DNA of 46,512 nt, taken from IMG/VR virus record IMGVR_UViG_3300020045_004406, positions 1 through 46,512 of that record; one strand, given 5' to 3'. Position numbers and translations under genes: made by a program. Under the pieces are notes generated by a model that was not told where the DNA came from, ran no database searches, and saw only the letters and a program-made list of their open reading frames with translations. Of the stretch, positions 4,893-46,512 are shown in pieces (position 1 is the stretch's first letter; each line of letters begins with the position of its first letter). The stretch is from a virus. Its lineage: Duplodnaviria; Caudoviricetes.

Positions 4893-5444
4893 TCACACCT
4901 GTTCGGCTTTTTCTTCTTCAACTTTTTCAACAACTCCAGTTTCAGCAGCCGGTGCAATTTGAATTGACATAAAAATAAAATCCTTAAAAGTCTTCCAAAA
5001 CTCAAGCGCTCTTTTACCATCCATTTCTAAAATTCTGCGGTCATCAAATTCAGACCATTCAGAAATTAAATGGCGCTCGCATCCAATTTGCAAATAATCA
5101 ACCGTGTAAACAACTGGATAAACTTCTGAAACAAAAATGCTTTTAATATGCTCACTGTTACCAGCGGCAAAACTCAGGTTGGCAAAACTCAGGTTGGCAG
5201 AACGCAGGTCGGCAGAACTCAGGTTGGCAAAACTCAGGTTGGCAGAACGCAGGTCGGCAGAACTCAGGTTGGCAAAACTCAGGTTGGCAGAACTCAGGTT
5301 GGCAGAACTCAGGTTGGCAGAACGCAGGTCGGCAGAACTCAGGTTGGCTTGCTCACCGCCATCCTCATAACGCAACCACATACCGTGCTTTTTTATAATT
5401 TCCGCTAATTGTTCTGTGGTGTAAGTTTTCATATTTAACTCCAT
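4893..5444 (-). CDS. Pentapeptide-repeat protein
   Basis: 12 A(N/D)L(S/R)(S/F) units, then a LQIGCERH...EW C-terminal domain. Confidence 0.9.
   Translation of the reverse strand: MELNMKTYTTEQLAEIIKKHGMWLRYEDGGEQANLSSADLRSANLSSANLSSANLSFANLSSADLRSANLSFANLSSADLRSANLSFANLSFAAGNSEHIKSIFVSEVYPVVYTVDYLQIGCERHLISEWSEFDDRRILEMDGKRALEFWKTFKDFIFMSIQIAPAAETGVVEKVEEEKAEQV
5166..5345. repeat. 12 x 15-bp tandem repeat (three unit variants)
   Basis: Units ggcaaaactcaggtt, ggcagaactcaggtt and ggcagaacgcaggtc counted directly. Confidence 0.95.
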
Positions 5445-6891: not shown

Positions 6892-7089
6892 TTAACCTAG
6901 TGCAGAATCGATGCCAGCATTTATGACGCATTCGTACCCGTAAAATATCTTGTCGAAGTCTTTCAGCGCCTGCTCTGCTATCTTTTTCTTTTCTGCCTTG
7001 GTTAGATTTATCCAATCTGGATCTTCTTTGCATGCGTCATTGAATCCAACGATGCACCCTTGCAAGAACTCTGTTTTTATATCAGACAT
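6892..7089 (-). CDS. Hypothetical protein
   Basis: Start overlaps the helicase end. Confidence 0.6.
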   Translation of the reverse strand: MSDIKTEFLQGCIVGFNDACKEDPDWINLTKAEKKKIAEQALKDFDKIFYGYECVINAGIDSALG

Positions 7090-8572
7090 CGAATTGCCCC
7101 AACAAATGGTTTAGCGTTTCTTTACCATTCTCAAAATTCTTTGCTGCTGACTTTGCGCGCTTGATATTCAGGTGCTTGATGTAACCGGCCACTCTGTGAT
7201 CTGGTGAGGCTTCGTTCTTGGCGCCAGTCGGGAACATTCCAAATTTCTCCTTGTATTTGTGCTTTGCCCATCCGTCGGCGTAACCTTTCAATCTGGCGTG
7301 ATGAAGCAATCCAGAATAGAACCCTTGATCGATTTCTTTCACTTCCTGTAACTCACCGGCCACCACTTCCAGGTCACGCTTCTTGCGCTTTACTTCATGG
7401 CCACACACCAAACACTTACCAGCCGCCATAATTGCACTACAGCACTCGCAAACCTGAGGCTCTTTCTTTTCGTCCTTCTTGGCTTGGGCGTCTTCTTGGT
7501 ATTCCTTTTTTCCATCGTCTAGGCAATCAGGGACAATATCCTCGGCGAATCCATGGCGGCAAACGTTGCTAGCGTGATCCAGGTAAATAGCGTATTCCTT
7601 GCCATCGAAAATACGCATGATCCGGCCTACTCTCTGGACGTAGCGAATGAGCGATTTAGTCGGGTAACAGTCGATAATGCAGCGCGTGCTTGGTGAGTCG
7701 TATCCAGTATTAAGCAGACTTGAGCAAGAAAGTATCTTGAACTCACCAGCGTTATGCCGCCTGTAAATGTCTTGGCGCAATTCTGGCTCTGTGTAGGCGT
7801 CAATGTGTACCGATGGAACCCCTGCGCGCTCAAACTCAGCCACAAGTCCTCGTGAGTGGCTTATCGATGGGCAGAATGCGATTGTCTGTGCGTTCTCACC
7901 AAGCTTTAGCCAAGTTTTGATAACATCGCCTATCAGCTTTGGCTTTTCCATCTCAATGGCTAGCTGCGTAGGGTCGTAATCCTTTCCGCCAGTCTCGGTG
8001 CGCTTTAACTTAATGTGCTCAAGGTCTGGCTGCTCACCGGCGTAATACTTGACTGGGCAAAGGAATCCTTTTTCTAGCAGCTCCCGTGTGGTGATTGGAA
8101 CAACCAATGCGCTGTAATACTTACCTAGTCCTTTGCTGTACGGCGTGGCGCTTAGTCCGATGAATGGAACGGCACTATAGGCTTCCATCATCTTGGTTAA
8201 GCCTTCGTAATGCGTATGAGCCTCATCTACAATGGCAAAATCAAACTCCAGCATCATGCGGCGTCGGGTCAATGTTTGAATGCTGGCTACTTGTATAGGC
8301 GCGCGCGGGTCGGTCTTTGGATGATTGCCCTGAACCACTCCACACCACAACCCACAAGCCTCAAACTTTTCTATGGTCTGCTCTACAAGCTGGATGCGGT
8401 CACAAATGAACACGCCGCGCTTACCTTTCCGGTGAGCTTCCATCATCATGTGCGCAGCCACAATCGTCTTACCAAATGACACATTGGCACCTAGCATGAT
8501 GCGTTTGTGTCCGGCTCGCATGTATCCGCGTATCCCCTCAATTGCATCTATTTGGTGAGGTCTTAATTCCAT
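7082..8572 (-). CDS. SF2 (DExH) helicase with C-terminal Zn finger
   Basis: SFGKT, DEAH, GLSATP, TGYD, QRVGRIMR, YLDHASN, CECC...CLVC. Confidence 0.92.
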   Translation of the reverse strand: MELRPHQIDAIEGIRGYMRAGHKRIMLGANVSFGKTIVAAHMMMEAHRKGKRGVFICDRIQLVEQTIEKFEACGLWCGVVQGNHPKTDPRAPIQVASIQTLTRRRMMLEFDFAIVDEAHTHYEGLTKMMEAYSAVPFIGLSATPYSKGLGKYYSALVVPITTRELLEKGFLCPVKYYAGEQPDLEHIKLKRTETGGKDYDPTQLAIEMEKPKLIGDVIKTWLKLGENAQTIAFCPSISHSRGLVAEFERAGVPSVHIDAYTEPELRQDIYRRHNAGEFKILSCSSLLNTGYDSPSTRCIIDCYPTKSLIRYVQRVGRIMRIFDGKEYAIYLDHASNVCRHGFAEDIVPDCLDDGKKEYQEDAQAKKDEKKEPQVCECCSAIMAAGKCLVCGHEVKRKKRDLEVVAGELQEVKEIDQGFYSGLLHHARLKGYADGWAKHKYKEKFGMFPTGAKNEASPDHRVAGYIKHLNIKRAKSAAKNFENGKETLNHLLGQFDV

Positions 8573-9097
8573 GTTATTTACCTATTAATCTAGGTATTTA
8601 CTACTTACCTAGGTGGTGATTCTCGGAGTAAAGGTGAAAGAACCCCATACCCAAAAAATTGGGCTTGAGCCTTTCACCTTACGATTACCATGGCGGAGCC
8701 ATCCCATCGCTTGGTGGTCTGGTATAATTGACGCTAGCCAGACTTGCGCACCTTCCTCCCGTCAAGGAGTCATACCACTGTTTGCGCTTTCGAACTCAGT
8801 TGTCGCGTGGTTATCTTCATACGACGTAAGACGCTGCCGGTGAGTGAGCCATAAGGCGGACATATCTCTCAGCGAATGTTTTGTTGCTTTTGATGTAATC
8901 GCAGGCGCAACCGACGGACTAGGGCTATCGCAGCAATAAGCTGTAATTTTAGGCAGGCATTTAGGCTACCTTAGCATTTAGTTAGTCGCCTTTTTAGCGT
9001 TGTATGGTCAACGTTTTCCTCTCGACTGCGCCAACCCACTGCTAAGGTGAGAGGAAGGGCTTTCAACTGAATCTGGCGAAACAATCTAGGCGCAGGT
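8573..9097 (-). ncRNA. Putative large structured non-coding RNA or origin-associated leader upstream of the helicase
   Basis: No credible ORF; perfect stems 8590-96/8606-12, 8631-40/8671-80, 8717-22/8738-43, 9016-23/9049-56 and 9026-32/9089-95; promoter directly upstream. Confidence 0.55.
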
Positions 9098-9100
9098 ATT

Positions 9101-9128
9101 AGTATAATCAATATTTAGGATTAAGCAA
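9101..9128 (-). promoter_or_regulatory. Sigma70-like leftward promoter
   Basis: TTGCTT-N16-TATACT on the minus strand. Confidence 0.6.
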
Positions 9129-9261
9129 TAAACTCAGTGGATAAAACTAGCAGATTTGTGCTGCGCTCAACGCGATATTTTGCCTGCTTGTGATTATCCG
9201 CCATAACATCGATAAAGCTAGATGACTTTCCGCATCTCACCTCTGCTCGGTATTGGTACAT
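9121..9261 (-). CDS. 46-aa hypothetical protein (not in ORF track)
   Basis: MYQYRAEVRCGKSS...STEFIA with GAGGTG RBS. Confidence 0.55.
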   Translation of the reverse strand: MYQYRAEVRCGKSSSFIDVMADNHKQAKYRVERSTNLLVLSTEFIA

Positions 9262-9286
9262 AATTCACCTCATTTTGTATAATCAA

Positions 9287-9616
9287 TTAATCGGTGGTTG
9301 TAACAACATCATAGGTCAAAGCGGCAATATCAGGCTTGCATGGATAAAACTCGCCCTTAACTCCTTTGATAATATAATCACCTATATCTGCGTAATGCTT
9401 TGCCTCCTTGTTTGGGCCATCCTCCAGTGTGTAAATAAGCAAACCATCACGCTTTACAAGGCTTTCATATTGCTCCCATTTATCCATTGCCTCCATCGTT
9501 GTCAAATCTGGCTTACCATCCGTAAACGTTATCACCTCGAAAAGGTTTTCTCCTGTCCATATAACGGCATCAACTTCAACTGGTTTTTTTCTTAATCTTA
9601 ATTGCATAATATTCAC
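9287..9616 (-). CDS. Conserved phage protein (PGDYG-like)
   Basis: RKKPVEVDA...IGDYIIKGVKGEFYPCKPDI. Confidence 0.75.
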   Translation of the reverse strand: MNIMQLRLRKKPVEVDAVIWTGENLFEVITFTDGKPDLTTMEAMDKWEQYESLVKRDGLLIYTLEDGPNKEAKHYADIGDYIIKGVKGEFYPCKPDIAALTYDVVTTTD

Positions 9617-36356: not shown

Positions 36357-36767
36357 TCAGTTAACCTTGCCGATAATCTGTGTATCAGGGATATAGCGCA
36401 TGTTCTTTACATCCTTAACACCAGATAGCTTACCCTCATAACGACGGTACTCAACCTTGTCGCCCACGTTGATACCCCATATTTGAGCTGGAGTTAAGGA
36501 GTAGAATTCATGTGACGGAGGGTAGTCATTTGGATTACAGCCGGGGAATCCACGAAACGCAGTATTACCTATTGCGCGGACATAGCCTTGATCGCATCCG
36601 TCCTGCTCGCGAGCCACATCTTTAGCCTGCAAAACAATACCGCCAGCGCTGGTCTCTTCGATCTTGATCATTTCAACTAACACATAGAACCCTAATGGCT
36701 CAATCTTCAAAATCTCTTCTGCTGCTGGATTACTTGGATCCATAAAGCTATTTTCTTCACAAAACAT
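36357..36767 (-). CDS. groES: GroES-like co-chaperonin
   Basis: IEPLG..VLV, EETSAGGIVL mobile loop, G.V.AIG, VGDKV...RY.G, D.QIIG.V. Confidence 0.85.
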   Translation of the reverse strand: MFCEENSFMDPSNPAAEEILKIEPLGFYVLVEMIKIEETSAGGIVLQAKDVAREQDGCDQGYVRAIGNTAFRGFPGCNPNDYPPSHEFYSLTPAQIWGINVGDKVEYRRYEGKLSGVKDVKNMRYIPDTQIIGKVN

Positions 36768-36795
36768 AATCACCTCTATGGTGTGGTTGGTAAAT

Positions 36796-37053
36796 CTATT
36801 CAGAATCAATTATTGGATTCCAACTTAAAAACTCTTTCAGAGCCTCAACATGGGCGCTTCGCTTAATTTCACAGATTGCTATCTGCTCTATCGTGGAGTG
36901 AATTACCGTTTTCGCCTGCGTCTCCAGCATTCCCAATTCTACCTCAAGCAAGAACTTACGTGTAACGCTGTTTTGTTTCCATAGTGCAAAGGCATCAGGC
37001 TCTACGGCAATGTTCTTTAGCTCTTCTTCGATATCAGCTATTCGCTTGTTCAT
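36796..37053 (-). CDS. Hypothetical head-module protein
   Basis: F..WKQ..VT..F motif; coupled to the portal stop. Confidence 0.65.
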   Translation of the reverse strand: MNKRIADIEEELKNIAVEPDAFALWKQNSVTRKFLLEVELGMLETQAKTVIHSTIEQIAICEIKRSAHVEALKEFLSWNPIIDSE

Positions 37054-41766: not shown

Positions 41767-41964
41767 TTAACTCCAAGTTGAAAAAGCCCGATCTACTCGG
41801 GCGAAGGTGCGGACTGATTTGGTGGTGGTGGCTGTGCAAACTGAAGGTGACTTATGAGTTTTCAGAAACTCAATAACTTCTGCTTTGCATTCTTCGTTAA
41901 TCATTGATTCTTCCATCGTCATCAGCAGCGCCATGTAGGCGCGCTCCTGTAGTAAGTTTTTCAA
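41767..41964 (-). CDS. Hypothetical protein
   Basis: Start overlaps the stop of 41961-42152; 3' end overlaps a terminator-like hairpin. Confidence 0.4.
   Translation of the reverse strand: MKNLLQERAYMALLMTMEESMINEECKAEVIEFLKTHKSPSVCTATTTKSVRTFARVDRAFSTWS
41781..41802 (-). terminator. Intrinsic terminator
   Basis: Minus strand gcccga-gtaga-tcgggc-ttttt. Confidence 0.65.
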
Positions 41965-42152
41965 AAAGTTGCCGTTAAAACTTCAAAAGGAACATCGAAT
42001 CCATTTCTTGAGTTTGAGTATCCGGCAATCTCATACACAGAAAAAGTTCGCTCATCAATTACCTTTTGCTTTTCTTCTGAAGCAATACTTTCATCACTTG
42101 CAACTTCTGATTTTATTTCTAATATTTTGCTTATCACTTCGTTATTAGTCAT
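41961..42152 (-). CDS. 63-aa acidic orphan protein
   Basis: GGAG RBS; first gene after promoter copy A. Confidence 0.7.
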   Translation of the reverse strand: MTNNEVISKILEIKSEVASDESIASEEKQKVIDERTFSVYEIAGYSNSRNGFDVPFEVLTATF

Positions 42153-42199
42153 TTTCTATCTCCAATCTAGCTACCGGCTAGTCAGTGGTTGCTGTATCG

Positions 42200-42247
42200 C
42201 TTCCATGTAAGTAATAATACTATATTTTTGAGTATTCGCAAGCATTA
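42200..42247 (-). promoter_or_regulatory. Promoter/operator copy A
   Basis: TTGCGA-N17-TATTAT; operator aatacta-N7-gagtatt at 42216-42236; near-repeat of 42634-42681. Confidence 0.8.
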
Positions 42248-42268
42248 TATCTAATAAACTTGCAATCT

Positions 42269-42442
42269 TTACACTTCCTTACGTTCGCAGTACTCCAGCC
42301 ATGCACCGCGAACCATTGAGCGGAATTTAATAGGGTTTGACTTGGCTGTGCGACCCATTGAGTTCTCACCCAATCCTAGAAAGCGCTCGCAGTCTTTCAG
42401 TGATCGCCAGCCAATTTGTTTTGCGTATTGAGATGGCGACAT
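42269..42442 (-). CDS. 57-aa HTH-like protein (not in ORF track)
   Basis: Hand translation MSPSQYAKQIGWRSLKDCERFLGLGENSMGRTAKSNPIKFRSMVRGAWLEYCERKEV; GAGG RBS. Confidence 0.6.
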   Translation of the reverse strand: MSPSQYAKQIGWRSLKDCERFLGLGENSMGRTAKSNPIKFRSMVRGAWLEYCERKEV

Positions 42443-42445
42443 TTT

Positions 42446-42598
42446 TTACCCTCTAACCACCCGCAATTCTTTTGTATCGATACCTTTTAGCGATGCCGAT
42501 TCCAAGGCTTGCATTGAGGCATCCAAGTCGCATGAGGCAAAGAATAAATCAGAGAAAACCACTTTTCCTGCTTTGTTTACTAATTTGATATTGAACAT
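42446..42598 (-). CDS. 50-aa orphan protein
   Basis: AGGA RBS before MFNIK; first gene after promoter copy B. Confidence 0.65.
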   Translation of the reverse strand: MFNIKLVNKAGKVVFSDLFFASCDLDASMQALESASLKGIDTKELRVVRG

Positions 42599-42633
42599 TT
42601 TTATAGTCCTAGCTTGCTGTCCGGCTTTATTGC

Positions 42634-42681
42634 CTTCCATGTGATACATAATACTCTATTTAAGAATATTAACAAGCATTA
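42634..42681 (-). promoter_or_regulatory. Promoter/operator copy B
   Basis: TTGTTA-N17-TATTAT; operator aatactc-N7-gaatatt at 42650-42670. Confidence 0.8.
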
Positions 42682-42860
42682 TGACGCAATTAGAAGCGTA
42701 AAGATAAGTTAAAGCCCGTTCAGGCAACATCTTGGGCGGCGATGCAATGCGGTTACAAGTCCTACCGTGCCCTACATGCTTATTTACCAGATTGCCGCAG
42801 CGAGGTGCTTGCACGGGTTTTGGTTAATCTGGATTACTGCGAACATGCGCGCTGGTTGTT

Positions 42861-42937
42861 TGGTCAGTGTGGCAGGACTCGAACCTGCAACCCCCGCGAT
42901 CCAAGCGCGGCCGTCTACCAATTGACATTACACACTG
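42861..42937 (-). tRNA. tRNA-Pro (anticodon UGG), CCA encoded
   Basis: Acceptor CAGTGTG/CACACTG, anticodon arm CCGCG-CTTGGAT-CGCGG, T arm GCAGG-TTCGAGT-CCTGC, 3' ACCA. Confidence 0.95.
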
Positions 42938-43603: not shown

Positions 43604-43744
43604 CTATTTCTCTCTGTTGGTTGGTTTGGATTTAACACTGAATTCACATTTACAATCTATACACATCTTCTTCCCCTCACTATCAAGCGATGATAGAAAG
43701 TAACTCCCGCACTTGGGGCATTTTGGCTTAATTGTTGCGCTCAT
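43604..43744 (-). CDS. 46-aa Zn-ribbon protein
   Basis: CPKCGS...CIDC; homolog of 1-117. Confidence 0.7.
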   Translation of the reverse strand: MSATIKPKCPKCGSYFLSSLDSEGKKMCIDCKCEFSVKSKPTNREK

Positions 43745-43754
43745 TTTCGTGATC

Positions 43755-44222
43755 CTAAAATTGGAGCATCAAGGCCTTAATATCAAGCCTGTGTTTTTTG
43801 GCCTTAGCCGGTAAAAATGTAAGCACCGGTAGGCAGTATTTTTTTGCATCAGTAAGGTTAAATGACTTCTTGTTAATCTCATGCTGCATGGTTGTTATTG
43901 TAATCGCATCGCAATAGAAAAACTCATTGTCAATGCAGAATAAAAACCCGCAGCGGATATTGCCGATATAGGTTTCCGATTCCTTTTTTAGCAATGCCTT
44001 TAGCTGCGTAAGTCCATCAAACTCAACCCTCGCTTTGCGGTGCTTTGCCTCAGCGAATAGCAATACATGGCCATCGAATATAATGCAGTCGCACACGTTT
44101 TTAGATGTGAACCGGCGCTGCGTTTCTTCGCCTTGCCAGCCAGCGTCTTTTAATCGTGTATAGCTCAATCCCTGCTTTTCGCAAGACTCTTTAATCAGCG
44201 CCTCAAAGCCTTTACCGTCCAT
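43755..44222 (-). CDS. RecU-like resolvase, second allele
   Basis: 153 of 155 aa identical to 127-594. Confidence 0.7.
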   Translation of the reverse strand: MDGKGFEALIKESCEKQGLSYTRLKDAGWQGEETQRRFTSKNVCDCIIFDGHVLLFAEAKHRKARVEFDGLTQLKALLKKESETYIGNIRCGFLFCIDNEFFYCDAITITTMQHEINKKSFNLTDAKKYCLPVLTFLPAKAKKHRLDIKALMLQF

Positions 44223-44559
44223 AACTAACTATCCCCTGGATAACTTTCAGCGGTATCTCAACCGGGTAATTATCTACCAGTTTTAACCACAAATCTGACT
44301 GCTCGCCATACCGGTGGATAAACTCATATTTATCACTGTGGAATAGCTTGTGCTCATCTGGCGTTAGCGGGATAACAAACCAATGGCCGATATGCACGCG
44401 CTCGTTGTTAACATAGGTTTTTCTTGATGATCCGACACAATGATGAACCTCTACGCCATAAGCGCCGGAAACGATGCTAGGCTGCTCTTTGCACCATGCC
44501 ATGAATTCTTTTTCATCAGCGTGAGCGCCACGGCTTTGCGGTGTTGATTTACGCCTCAT
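44212..44559 (-). CDS. Ref/DUF968-like protein, second allele
   Basis: Same length as 584-931 from MRRKS. Confidence 0.55.
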   Translation of the reverse strand: MRRKSTPQSRGAHADEKEFMAWCKEQPSIVSGAYGVEVHHCVGSSRKTYVNNERVHIGHWFVIPLTPDEHKLFHSDKYEFIHRYGEQSDLWLKLVDNYPVEIPLKVIQGIVSYGR

Positions 44560-44662
44560 TGATAAACTCCATAGTAACGCAATCAAAAACCCAAATCTTT
44601 CCACCTGTGCACGTATCGCGAAGCATAGCAATTTGAACGGCTTTCTTTACACTTGCGCCCAT
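44549..44662 (-). pseudogene. C-terminal fragment of an HslV/proteasome-like Ntn-hydrolase phage protein
   Basis: MGASVKKAVQIAMLRDTCTGGKI matches the G....AV..A...D..TGG C-terminal pattern; 5' part replaced by foreign DNA. Confidence 0.5.
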
Positions 44663-45425
44663 AACCAAGCGCAAGGCCCTTCTTCTCAAGGATGTCGACC
44701 ACGACGTCATCCATGGCAAGGCGCTCACCCTTCTTGCGGTTGACGCCGCCCTCGCCGACCACGCCCGTCCCAAAGCGCTCCACCAGCGCCGCCCATACCC
44801 GTTCGAAGTCGTCTAGGGCGACTTCGGGGAAGTCCGCCTGCCCGTACCAGTCCCATAGGTAGCGCACGCCCGAGGTGTGGGTCCCTGCAGCGATGAATTG
44901 TTGGCCGTTGCCGAGGAACTCGACCATCGCCTTGCGGGGTTCGCCCTTGTCGTCCACCCCGCCATCGACAGGGAGCATGCGCTTGGGTAGCTCACCGGCC
45001 ACACGGAAGGCCAAGAGGCACTTACCCGAGTTGGCGCGGTAGCGCTTGGGGGGAAGGAGTAGTTCGTCCGCCAAGAAGTCGGCAATGGCCTGGGCCTTCT
45101 CGCGGTCGTCGACGTCGATGTCGAAGGCCCGGACGTTGCGGGTTTGCAGGCAGATACCGTAGTCAGGGTTCTTCGACCAATCGCCCACCTGTTTGGCCGT
45201 GACCTGTTTATCGGTCCAGCCGGGCAGCCCCGCGACGTGGCCCATGCCATTATAATGTGAGGGTGTCTTGCCAATGCCGGCGATTTTGCTGTGGGGCGAT
45301 ACCGTCGCCTGCGGATTGCTCACCACGGGGAGGAGGTCGGCCACCAGTCCCATGCGTGTGAACAAGTCCCACTCGTCAGTCGTCGCGCCCCAGCGTGGGC
45401 CGACGCCAGTATCTTTCTTCGCCAT
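44583..45425 (-). CDS. Prim-pol (AEP primase-polymerase) N-terminal domain, truncated at the junction
   Basis: GKTP, FDIDVDD, VEFLGNGQQFIAAGTH.SG.RY.W; GC-rich; the last ~23 aa come from the AT-richer DNA. Confidence 0.75.
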   Translation of the reverse strand: MAKKDTGVGPRWGATTDEWDLFTRMGLVADLLPVVSNPQATVSPHSKIAGIGKTPSHYNGMGHVAGLPGWTDKQVTAKQVGDWSKNPDYGICLQTRNVRAFDIDVDDREKAQAIADFLADELLLPPKRYRANSGKCLLAFRVAGELPKRMLPVDGGVDDKGEPRKAMVEFLGNGQQFIAAGTHTSGVRYLWDWYGQADFPEVALDDFERVWAALVERFGTGVVGEGGVNRKKGERLAMDDVVVDILEKKGLALGYGRKCKESRSNCYASRYVHRWKDLGF

Positions 45426-45470
45426 CTGTATTTTCTTTCTTCAGGGGGTTTTGTGGGAAGTCAAAATCGT

Positions 45471-45686
45471 TTAGGGCACCATGCGCAAAGTCGGGAGGCG
45501 TCCCTTGCTGGCCTTGCCAAGGGGCTTCGCCGCCGCCTCAAGCCGCTCGGCAAGTTTCAGGCTGGCGTTGCGGTGGCCCGAGGCCAGTTGGTAGAGGTAA
45601 CGGCGCGAGGTCTCCGCCCCTTTGGCAAGGAGCTCTTGCTCAAGGGGGGTCGCCGCCGCCATCCATTTGTTAAGGTTGGTCATCAC
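45471..45686 (-). CDS. Cro-like HTH protein
   Basis: LAKGAETSRRYLYQLASGHRNAS..LA..LE; upstream of prim-pol. Confidence 0.75.
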   Translation of the reverse strand: MMTNLNKWMAAATPLEQELLAKGAETSRRYLYQLASGHRNASLKLAERLEAAAKPLGKASKGRLPTLRMVP

Positions 45687-45690
45687 TTAC

Positions 45691-46149
45691 CTACCGTAAC
45701 TTCAACAGTTGGGTGTGGGTCATCACAAGGACCGGCGTACCTATGTTGAGAGGAGTTGTCGGGATCATGCCGGCGCGCAGGTAGGGGGCGAGGGAGGCGC
45801 GGGCCACCTGCGTCCATATGCAGGCGATGTCGGGGTTGGCGAGGTGCGCCCACATCAGTGCGCGGCGCAGCTTGACCGGTTGCATGGCGTCCTCGGACAT
45901 GGCTTGAAGGTATACGATACCATGCTCCTCCTTGGAGAAGAGGAACACGTCGGTCACGCGCTTGGCGTCGCCGTCTTCGTTGACGTAGCCGACGATCTGC
46001 AGCTTTTCGAAGGTCGCTTTGCATTGGGCGTAGCTGTCAGGGATGCCCGTCACCTTGGCTTTGACGAGGAGGTCGTAGACCGCAGGCCACCAGTTCTCTT
46101 GAAGGCGCTCGGGCATCAGGACGATATTGAGGGAAGCGTGTTTGGTCAC
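45691..46149 (-). CDS. Hypothetical protein (GC-rich segment)
   Basis: Tiles with 46146-46463; GC3-rich codons. Confidence 0.55.
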   Translation of the reverse strand: MTKHASLNIVLMPERLQENWWPAVYDLLVKAKVTGIPDSYAQCKATFEKLQIVGYVNEDGDAKRVTDVFLFSKEEHGIVYLQAMSEDAMQPVKLRRALMWAHLANPDIACIWTQVARASLAPYLRAGMIPTTPLNIGTPVLVMTHTQLLKLR

Positions 46150-46463
46150 AGGGTGGTGCTTTCTGTTGAATTGAGAAGGAGGGGCTTGTGGAAGCCGACT
46201 TCGGTCGTGATAAGGACGGCTTCCATGGGCAGCTTATCGGTGTATTCGACTTTGTTCTGTTGGAGTTTCATGGCGACTTTTGTCTTGGCCGCTTCAGCGG
46301 TGTGGGCAAATGCCCTGCGCGTCTTCGGCACGAATTTGCCACCCGAAGCTGTCGTGTAATAGACGACGAGCCACCAGCGTGGACCTTCCCGGGTGATGTC
46401 CTGTTGTCCTTCGGCGCGCTCACCTGTGATGGCGCGGCGCAGGGCCCCGGATTGAATGACCAC
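46146..46463 (-). CDS. Hypothetical protein (GC-rich segment)
   Basis: GTGA overlap with the downstream ORF. Confidence 0.5.
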   Translation of the reverse strand: MVIQSGALRRAITGERAEGQQDITREGPRWWLVVYYTTASGGKFVPKTRRAFAHTAEAAKTKVAMKLQQNKVEYTDKLPMEAVLITTEVGFHKPLLLNSTESTTL

Positions 46464-46512
46464 GGCACCGAAGACGTTGTGGCGGGGGAGGCCGACGATA
46501 AGCTTGAGAAGG

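Follow-up and report, generated by a model that had tools for sequence, protein, structure and literature searches.

The stretch of DNA analysed here (hereafter the window) comprises 46,512 nucleotides of a Caudoviricetes record in IMG/VR (IMGVR_UViG_3300020045_004406). On its minus strand, an SF2 DNA helicase of 496 amino acids is encoded at 7082..8572 (phrog_16, E 4e-88; ResIII and Helicase_C domains). Directly upstream, positions 8573-9128 contain no ORF longer than 76 aa in any of the six frames, which agrees with the long ORF-free stretch of the original prediction and leads us to reject a hidden or frameshifted initiator within the gap. The 46-aa ORF at 8971-9111 was rejected as an initiator as well, since its match to DUF2582 (18.6 bits) stays below the cut-off of 24.2 and it begins 5' of the putative transcription start. 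The gap had been described as a long one in a densely packed operon. The gap itself is real, but it is not unique, as gaps of 798 and 902 nt also occur in the same 43.6-kb unit (positions 1-43630) at a cut-off of 80 aa. The longest of these (41840-42741, 902 nt) adjoins a single tRNA gene at 42865-42936. Elsewhere in the unit, a gene for a GroES-like co-chaperonin lies amid the head genes (36357-36809), and a protein with tandem five-residue repeats is encoded at 4893-5444.

The five perfect stems reported earlier for the gap are all exact reverse complements at the positions given. Perfect stems of at least 6 bp are not enriched (10, compared to 9.1 in shuffled sequences, with 85 out of 200 shuffles reaching 10), while those of at least 8 bp are (3 compared to 0.5; 4 out of 200 shuffles reach 3). 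The minus strand of the gap folds better than 100 out of 100 shuffles (z = -2.34); for the plus strand, z is -1.94 and 5 out of 100 shuffles fold equally well. A putative sigma-70 promoter of the minus strand, TTGCTT followed by 16 nt and TATACT, is present at 9101..9128 as had been noted, but it is too weak for a consensus scan: in the region 8400-9400, on both strands, such a scan yields no promoter site (2.0 expected by chance) and no terminator site. In the locus of the closest helicase relative, L006, TTGACA stands at the matching place. Among 65 listed clusters of the conserved element described below, a sigma-70-like promoter lies within 100 nt upstream of the core in 20, mostly from the myovirus group, compared to 1.2% in shuffles, and a terminator-like run (loose pattern) precedes the element in 15 more.

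In line with the earlier reading, positions 1-43630 yielded neither a primase nor a polymerase nor an O-like initiator. This search comprised PHROGs profiles on 75 window ORFs, Pfam on 30, phrog_186 and phrog_47 over the record, and tblastn, which recovered no frameshifted initiator or primase in the unit. The unit had also been called apparently complete; its completeness is unproven, because CheckV rates the record as linear and 69% complete. Outside the unit, an N-terminal Prim-Pol fragment is found at 44583-45425, in a tail with a GC content of 53-62%. Positions 43631-46512 begin with an 88%-identical repeat of bases 1-926, followed by this high-GC tail, which carries the truncated Prim-Pol gene and an HTH gene. 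Positions 43631-46512 are probably a join of two strains plus a piece of a foreign phage. Based on the high-GC tail behind the diverged repeat of the left end, the truncated Prim-Pol gene is read as probably foreign, on a chimeric piece, and was rejected as the unit's own primase. GC skew cannot locate an origin, since it tracks gene direction both in the window and in phage YS35.

The original prediction described the gap as a structured non-coding region of about 520 nt. A conserved and covarying element is indeed present on the minus strand, but the conserved unit is confined to the 3' part of about 270 nt, 8874-8605. The 5' extension (8880..9095, minus strand), which lies outside the widespread core, may form a pseudoknot, in which the pairing of 9095-9089 with 9032-9026 crosses that of 9056-9049 with 9023-9016, as well as a long stem whose closing positions are near 8985 and 8915. 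On its own, it folds on par with shuffles (z = -0.19). These 5' 220 nt or so are found in a single relative, L006, where an analogous arrangement was judged by eye; the alignment of L006 to the window starts at 8873, and a pattern scan for the extension returned 12 loci, of which the contig of L006 is the sole relative.

The core is far more widespread. At least 155 carrier loci in at least 70 clusters were obtained from 551 candidate loci in viral, genome and metagenome collections by pattern scans filtered with a profile, a count that includes the same contigs fetched repeatedly. A loose pattern was discarded as a carrier finder, as it returned mostly noise (one carrier in 120 loci); a scan of a genome collection gave three carriers in 44 loci. 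In a blastn search with the gap, Pseudomonas phage ventosus was matched in a stretch that has no annotation and follows a promoter. In isolate phage records, one myovirus-type query gives 187 matches, 183 of which cover at least 80% of its length, and a small-phage query matches seven Vibrio phages. Cultured carriers include the Pakpunaviruses PAK_P1, PAK_P2, JG004 and PaP1 as well as Vibrio phage 1.064.O. Phages YS35 and ventosus have two copies each, both on one strand, and the copies of JG004 (at 21.6 and 54.7 of 93 kb) are distant from the record ends. No copy was found in the genomes of PS-1, Vibrio 1.233.A and HS1, PAK_P3 and ICP1 do not match the element model, and FelixO1 yields only a fragment (E 0.155). 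Two blastn queries (window 8580-8890 and the core of L048) find no match among 72,556 plasmids.

A comparison of the window and of 18 and 20 carrier loci with Rfam 15 gave no family at the gathering score or even at a weak E-value, and none of five carrier records matches RF02932 (Betaproteobacteria-1) or RF01718 (Polynucleobacter-1) at E 1. A literature search, to which most subscription journals were closed, produced no paper describing the element. A survey of IMG/VR reports 8,495 candidates of 29-151 nt (PMC10690425), and none of six motif words is present in six of its supplementary files. A fragment of the element may nevertheless already be catalogued in supplements of that survey or of PMC5737381. 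Annotated small RNAs of two phages were considered and set aside, as far as the consulted parts of their descriptions go: the one sRNA found for PAK_P4 (91948-92050; PMC5563952) lies between tRNA06 and tRNA07, i.e., inside the tRNA cluster, while the element is upstream of the cluster, and sRNA1 and sRNA2 belong to PAK_P3 (PMC4933390), which has no match to the model. A 13-nt 'sRNA' annotation in YS35 falls within one copy of the element and is uninformative. Judged from comparative evidence, the element is a real, uncatalogued family of ornate phage elements, predicted to act as RNA.

The predicted fold of the core, for which all coordinates refer to the minus strand, consists of two domains followed by further hairpins. 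Domain 1 (8832..8874) comprises helix P1 (8874-8870 with 8836-8832) and a variable hairpin, P2. P1 encloses two near-invariant motifs, GATATGTC (8866-8859) and, after P2, CACTCACC (8846-8839), both seen as invariant alignment columns; these unpaired motifs could be contact sites for RNA polymerase or for some other factor of the host. In one subfamily (L307, L308, L310, L326 and L327), they are replaced together with the linker that follows, hinting at a tertiary contact. Domain 2 (8746..8825) is a chain of pseudoknots formed by P3 (8825-8821 with 8806-8802), P4 (8811-8807 with 8778-8774) and P5 (8787-8783 with 8750-8746), and includes the hairpin P6 (8769-8756). A kissing loop (8717..8765) is predicted between the loop of P6 (8765-8760) and that of P7 (8733-8728), P7 (8743-8738 with 8722-8717) being the 6-bp stem noted before. 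The 10-bp stem noted before is part of a long hairpin, P8 (8631..8680), which is an exact stem in the window and has an equivalent, by eye, in 18 sequences of one alignment. The G-rich runs that had been pointed out on the minus strand are not free G-tracts but helix strands or part of a repeated tag.

Covariation among relatives supports six nested helices, the pseudoknot and the kissing loop. When mutual information was calculated on 36 sequences with no structure assumed, the top signals were canonical pairs of P5, P3, P7 and P6 and of the contact between the P6 and P7 loops, so that the kissing loop emerged unprompted. In an alignment of 24 window-like sequences, which leaves aside members with large insertions, myovirus-type members and those with variant motifs, 89.9% of the cells of 38 named pairs are paired, compared to 60.9% after shuffling and 32-45% in slid controls, and 32 of these 38 pairs show two-sided changes. 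The latter are seen in 6/6 pairs of P1, 3/3 of P2, 3/4 of P3, 5/5 of P5 (100% paired), 3/4 of P6, 6/6 of P7 (99.3% paired) and 5/5 of the kissing loop (93.3% paired); P4 is the weakest helix, being mostly invariant, with 1/5. The strands of the domain 1 duplex pair better within their own phage than across phages (6.69 compared to 3.39). This holds for 7/7 helices, and 0 of 20,000 permutations reach the observed value, a count that overstates the significance because the sequences are related. In 7/7 helices, the sense strand forms the longer helix than the antisense strand, and G-U pairs account for 82 of 940 pairs. Given these G-U pairs, which favour the minus strand of the window, and the enrichment of promoters upstream, the element likely acts as RNA. 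Four RNA data sets compared with a Pakpunavirus copy consist of contigs that carry no joints and no information on ends. A likeness to group I introns, RNase P and the hammerhead was dropped, as the helix order does not fit and Rfam has models for all three.

The most telling feature of the element is a twice-written tag that is specific for each phage and was absent from the original prediction. Reading 5' to 3', P7 is followed by Y1-GGCTCC-X1, the long hairpin, Y2-N-CACC-X2 and an AT-rich tract. In the window, the first copy (8685..8704, minus strand), the proposed guide, is composed of Y1 (8704-8701), the conserved GGCTCC and X1, GCCATGGTAA (8694-8685). The second copy (8605..8623, minus strand), the proposed DNA target, is composed of Y2 (8623-8620), the conserved TCACC and X2, ACCTAGGTAA (8614-8605). 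Behind it, the AT-rich tract (8573..8604, minus strand) reaches the helicase start and is a candidate unwinding region. The 50 nt behind the second tag are 70% AT, compared to 54% for the window, and the AT content is above the locus average in 28 out of 29 anchored rows; the tract may also merely be a translation leader.

The two copies were compared in tests anchored on the conserved flanks only, because an unanchored repeat search is weak (at least 11/12 matches in 14 of 43 sequences, compared to 0.9% of shuffles). The GGCTCC and CACC anchors are present in 26 of the 70 listed clusters and missing from the other 44. In these 26, X1 matches X2 at 7.5/10 positions when both come from one phage and at 3.3 when they come from different phages. 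Four clusters score 5 or less (L321, L503, L514 and L534); three of them appear, on inspection by eye, to be shifted by one base, and the mismatch count excludes all four. Y1 and Y2 agree similarly (2.84 of 4 within and 1.42 across phages; 25 rows), while the 3 nt directly before Y, taken as a control, barely do (0.92 and 0.70). For the myovirus type, X1 and X2 share 9.1 positions within and 5.6 across phages (10 rows), and by eye the three-part tag matches in both copies in 13 myovirus-type clusters. In some strains, the Pakpunavirus copy of the element near an RNA ligase gene (L551, L552, L553 and L229) contains X1 twice, with an AT-rich spacer that varies; the other copy of the element is at least 99% identical in 119 records.

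The mismatches between the copies mostly run in one direction. Over positions 1-12 in the small phages, G in the first copy faces A in the second 35 times and the reverse occurs once; over positions 3-12, the counts are 14 and 1 (p = 0.012 against the cross-phage share). This bias is partly compositional, as its cross-phage share is 0.64 in X and 0.79 in Y, and it is absent from the myovirus group (4 and 3). Such a bias would arise from pairing between an RNA of the first copy and the template DNA at the second copy, where rG-dT wobble would be tolerated. No complement of X2 was found on the same strand (5.7, compared to 5.8 for the tags of other phages; 11 rows), and X2 of the window has no second occurrence in the 43.6-kb unit at up to one mismatch. 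Since the two copies change together, the mismatches favour G-then-A, no same-strand complement was found and X2 of the window is unique, the template strand at X2 is the most probable partner for X1. Wobble cannot explain two of the mismatches in the tag of the window itself, whose X2 is also able to form a local hairpin (8612-8606 with 8596-8590).

The gene context across carriers does not bear out the RNA-plus-helicase module that had been proposed. Among 79 loci from the closest relatives of the helicase, only 6 have the element, 4 of these 6 being sequences used in the query, and the element is also present in myoviruses and in complete small phages that lack this helicase. It lies on the same strand and within 3.4 kb of this helicase in 9 of 70 listed clusters; for many of the clusters, the sequence is too short to judge this. 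In two cultured phages that encode this SF2 helicase and lack the RNA, an O/RepL-like gene occupies the slot directly upstream that the element holds in the window. The corresponding O/DnaD-like family, phrog_186, occurs in both of these phages and in 0 of 8 records with the RNA and this SF2 helicase, most of which are fragments. Taking all 20 RNA-bearing records together, phrog_186 is represented in 5.

Four complete carrier genomes have no match to phrog_16, phrog_186 or phrog_47, and in three of these four, no helicase, primase or polymerase was found in the 100 of 134 ORFs (at least 85 aa) that were scanned. Queries with helicases, primases, initiators and polymerases against the complete carriers by tblastn gave nothing. 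One carrier, G004, encodes a 117-aa protein (L567:3010-3363) that corresponds only to the C-terminal part of O-like initiators, with the DNA-binding half missing; in another, G008, an ORF (L572:1904-2353) likewise matches only this C-terminal part, weakly (E 5e-6). By contrast, a DnaD-like gene and a primase-helicase are encoded 7-8 kb upstream in Vibrio phage 1.064.O, Pakpunavirus-type myoviruses have two copies beside their own primase-helicase and polymerase, and L078 and L266 encode a full primase. The genes downstream of the element are entirely different in L045-type phages and in L266.

Helicase relatives without the element often carry other conserved ORF-free blocks of about 450-550 nt near the helicase, which belong to at least three unrelated families: B (L361:2060-2636, L411:6545-7000 and L379), C (L418:1070-1568, L419, L362-L364 and L415) and D (L424, L356, L349-L351 and L412). 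Further such blocks are found in L357, L360, L365 and L366 and in phage PS-1 (L003:3382-3994), whose 614-nt gap before the helicase does not match the element model. Eight such block loci have no Rfam match; the blocks may be further origin RNAs. In about 39 of the 79 helicase loci (L348-L426, by eye), the next gene encodes a protein of about 130 aa that looks like a stand-alone primase zinc finger (e.g., L355:3412-3807), and two such proteins that were scanned match only the N-terminal part of primase profiles.

The RNA-primed origin suggested by the original prediction survives as the best reading of the evidence, with origin function itself as a predicted role. We propose, with a probability of roughly 55%, that the element acts as a non-coding RNA with pseudoknots, and that pairing of its first tag copy with template DNA at the second copy would hold an R-loop open there and start replication without a DNA-binding initiator. 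Host RNA polymerase would transcribe the element from the upstream promoter, as the enrichment of promoters in relatives suggests, and the RNA would fold into P1-P7 with the pseudoknot chain and kissing loop indicated by covariation. P8 would loop out and bring Y1-X1 to the transcription bubble at Y2-X2, where pairing with the template strand would occur, consistent with the co-changing repeat and the G-then-A bias. By analogy to ColE1, the hybrid would extend into the AT-rich tract, the RNA end would prime the leading strand, and the displaced strand would take up the SF2 helicase of the phage or the host primosome. The covariation, the co-changing tag, the lack of phrog_186 in the eight records with the RNA and this SF2 helicase, its presence in both RNA-less phages with this helicase, and the complete carriers in which no replication enzymes were found argue for this origin. 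The presence of phrog_186 in 5 of 20 carriers, the full replisome of Pakpunaviruses, the low share of helicase relatives with the element (6/79) and the lack of a plasmid match argue against it.

The full replisome of some carriers would be less puzzling if the element were a cis-acting transcription RNA comparable to HK022 put. As an antiterminator or pause element, it would modify RNA polymerase where long operons begin, and the tag would serve to anchor or pause the complex. Its position directly behind a promoter (20 of 65 listed clusters) or a terminator-like run (15 more) is well suited to this, and the two myovirus copies lie on the same strand, one preceding the tRNA cluster and what is probably a small terminase gene, the other preceding replication genes. 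Nonetheless, we consider this explanation unlikely: it leaves unexplained why O-like genes are found in none of eight records with the RNA and this SF2 helicase and why three complete genomes show no replication enzymes, and the downstream genes differ entirely in L045-type phages and L266. Moreover, put is a short RNA of two hairpins.

An origin could also be of the conventional DNA type, with the tags acting as protein-bound iterons by an AT-rich tract and the folded RNA as cofactor or loader for a phage protein. Phage-specific direct repeats beside an AT-rich tract are the usual layout of iteron origins, the duplication of X1 in some Pakpunavirus strains is compatible with it, and a gene resembling winged-helix initiators is present in 5 of 20 carriers. 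This seems rather improbable to us, since neither the one-way G-then-A bias nor the fixed mismatches within a split tag are accounted for, and no candidate DNA-binding initiator was found in the window unit, G004 or G006. We regard as similarly improbable that the element is a stand-alone or catalytic large RNA, either similar to GOLLD and ROOL or a processing ribozyme, whose two tags would take turns in pairing with another RNA. The element does have chained pseudoknots and numerous invariant nucleotides that are unpaired, both typical of ribozymes, and one myovirus copy precedes a tRNA cluster, as is described for GOLLD and ROOL in the consulted part of PMC5737381. Yet the tag was found to have no complement on the same strand near the element, X2 of the window does not recur in the unit, and there is no Rfam match and no terminator behind the element in the window. 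Finally, a DNA-packaging element (a pac signal or packaging RNA) is very improbable. Several clusters do have terminase genes at a distance of 1-5 kb on the downstream side, encoded by the strand of the element, but the terminase of the window is 32 kb off and the JG004 copies are far from the record ends.

A broader and more tentative idea, to which we give less than even odds, is that of a widespread phage RNA acting as a reprogrammable initiator: a pseudoknotted scaffold with a split guide of about 14 nt would invade double-stranded DNA where the site matches and open it for replication without any DNA-binding protein of the phage, a change of guide would retarget it, and the three or more unrelated families of helicase-side blocks would perhaps represent more classes. 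If correct, the origin reading would amount to a new RNA fold with a guide readable from sequence, and it would offer an answer to how phages without recognisable replication enzymes begin copying. The origin reading is directly testable, as cultured Pakpunaviruses and Vibrio phage 1.064.O carry the element. Should it fail, an uncatalogued ornate RNA family with strong covariation still stands.

Compared to known systems, an iteron origin with an O-like initiator would have an adjacent winged-helix initiator gene, with the repeats within or next to it; no such gene was found in the window unit or in the eight records with the RNA and this SF2 helicase. The place of the element behind promoters fits a putative antiterminator of the HK022 put type, which would act in cis to suppress termination further down. 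R-loop origins of phage T4 consist of a promoter followed by an AT-rich tract and occur in several copies in a lytic phage with its own replisome. The element resembles them in this layout, in its multiple copies and in its coexistence with a complete replisome, as in the Pakpunaviruses. To our knowledge, T4 origins have neither a conserved folded RNA nor a self-matching tag.

Large ornate RNAs of bacteria and phages are known from replication regions (ARRPOF and PAGEV) and from the vicinity of phage tRNAs (GOLLD and ROOL), according to the consulted part of PMC5737381. The element is similarly large and ornate, but matches no Rfam 15 family. RNA-initiated replication without an initiator protein is known for ColE1 and MRB (marine RNA-based) plasmids (PMC3035462, PMC5043065, as far as consulted). 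The MRB origin of pB1067, a protein-free origin of about 500 bp from marine bacteria that encodes an RNA of 250-500 nt, is similar to the origin proposed here. In the consulted part of its description (PMC3035462), however, conservation is seen in the small antisense RNA I, of about 70 nt, whereas the long sense RNA is conserved in the element, which has no plasmid match.

The closest parallel is RNA II of ColE1, a non-coding RNA that the RNA polymerase of the host transcribes ahead of an origin needing no Rep protein. In the accounts consulted in part (PMC5043065, PMC4555960), this RNA of 550 nt stays hybridised in a persistent manner and is trimmed by RNase H so that Pol I can extend it; for the element, about 490 nt separate the putative start from X2 in the window, and the hybrid is predicted. 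The element differs in lacking sequence or Rfam similarity and a plasmid match, in having a core of about 270 nt with a pseudoknot chain and kissing loop, and in residing in phages. No counterpart of the antisense RNA I, which overlaps the 5' end in ColE1, was found in 8400-9400 of the window, where a consensus scan gave no promoter on either strand. By sequence comparison, the element is outside the ColE1 and MRB families. Its proposed anchor is likewise different, being a split tag of 14 nt that varies between phages. What triggers the hybrid is called speculative in these ColE1 accounts (PMC5043065, PMC4555960), and the tag would supply such a trigger. If the origin reading is true, RNA-initiated replication would extend from plasmids to small uncultured phages and lytic Pseudomonas myoviruses.
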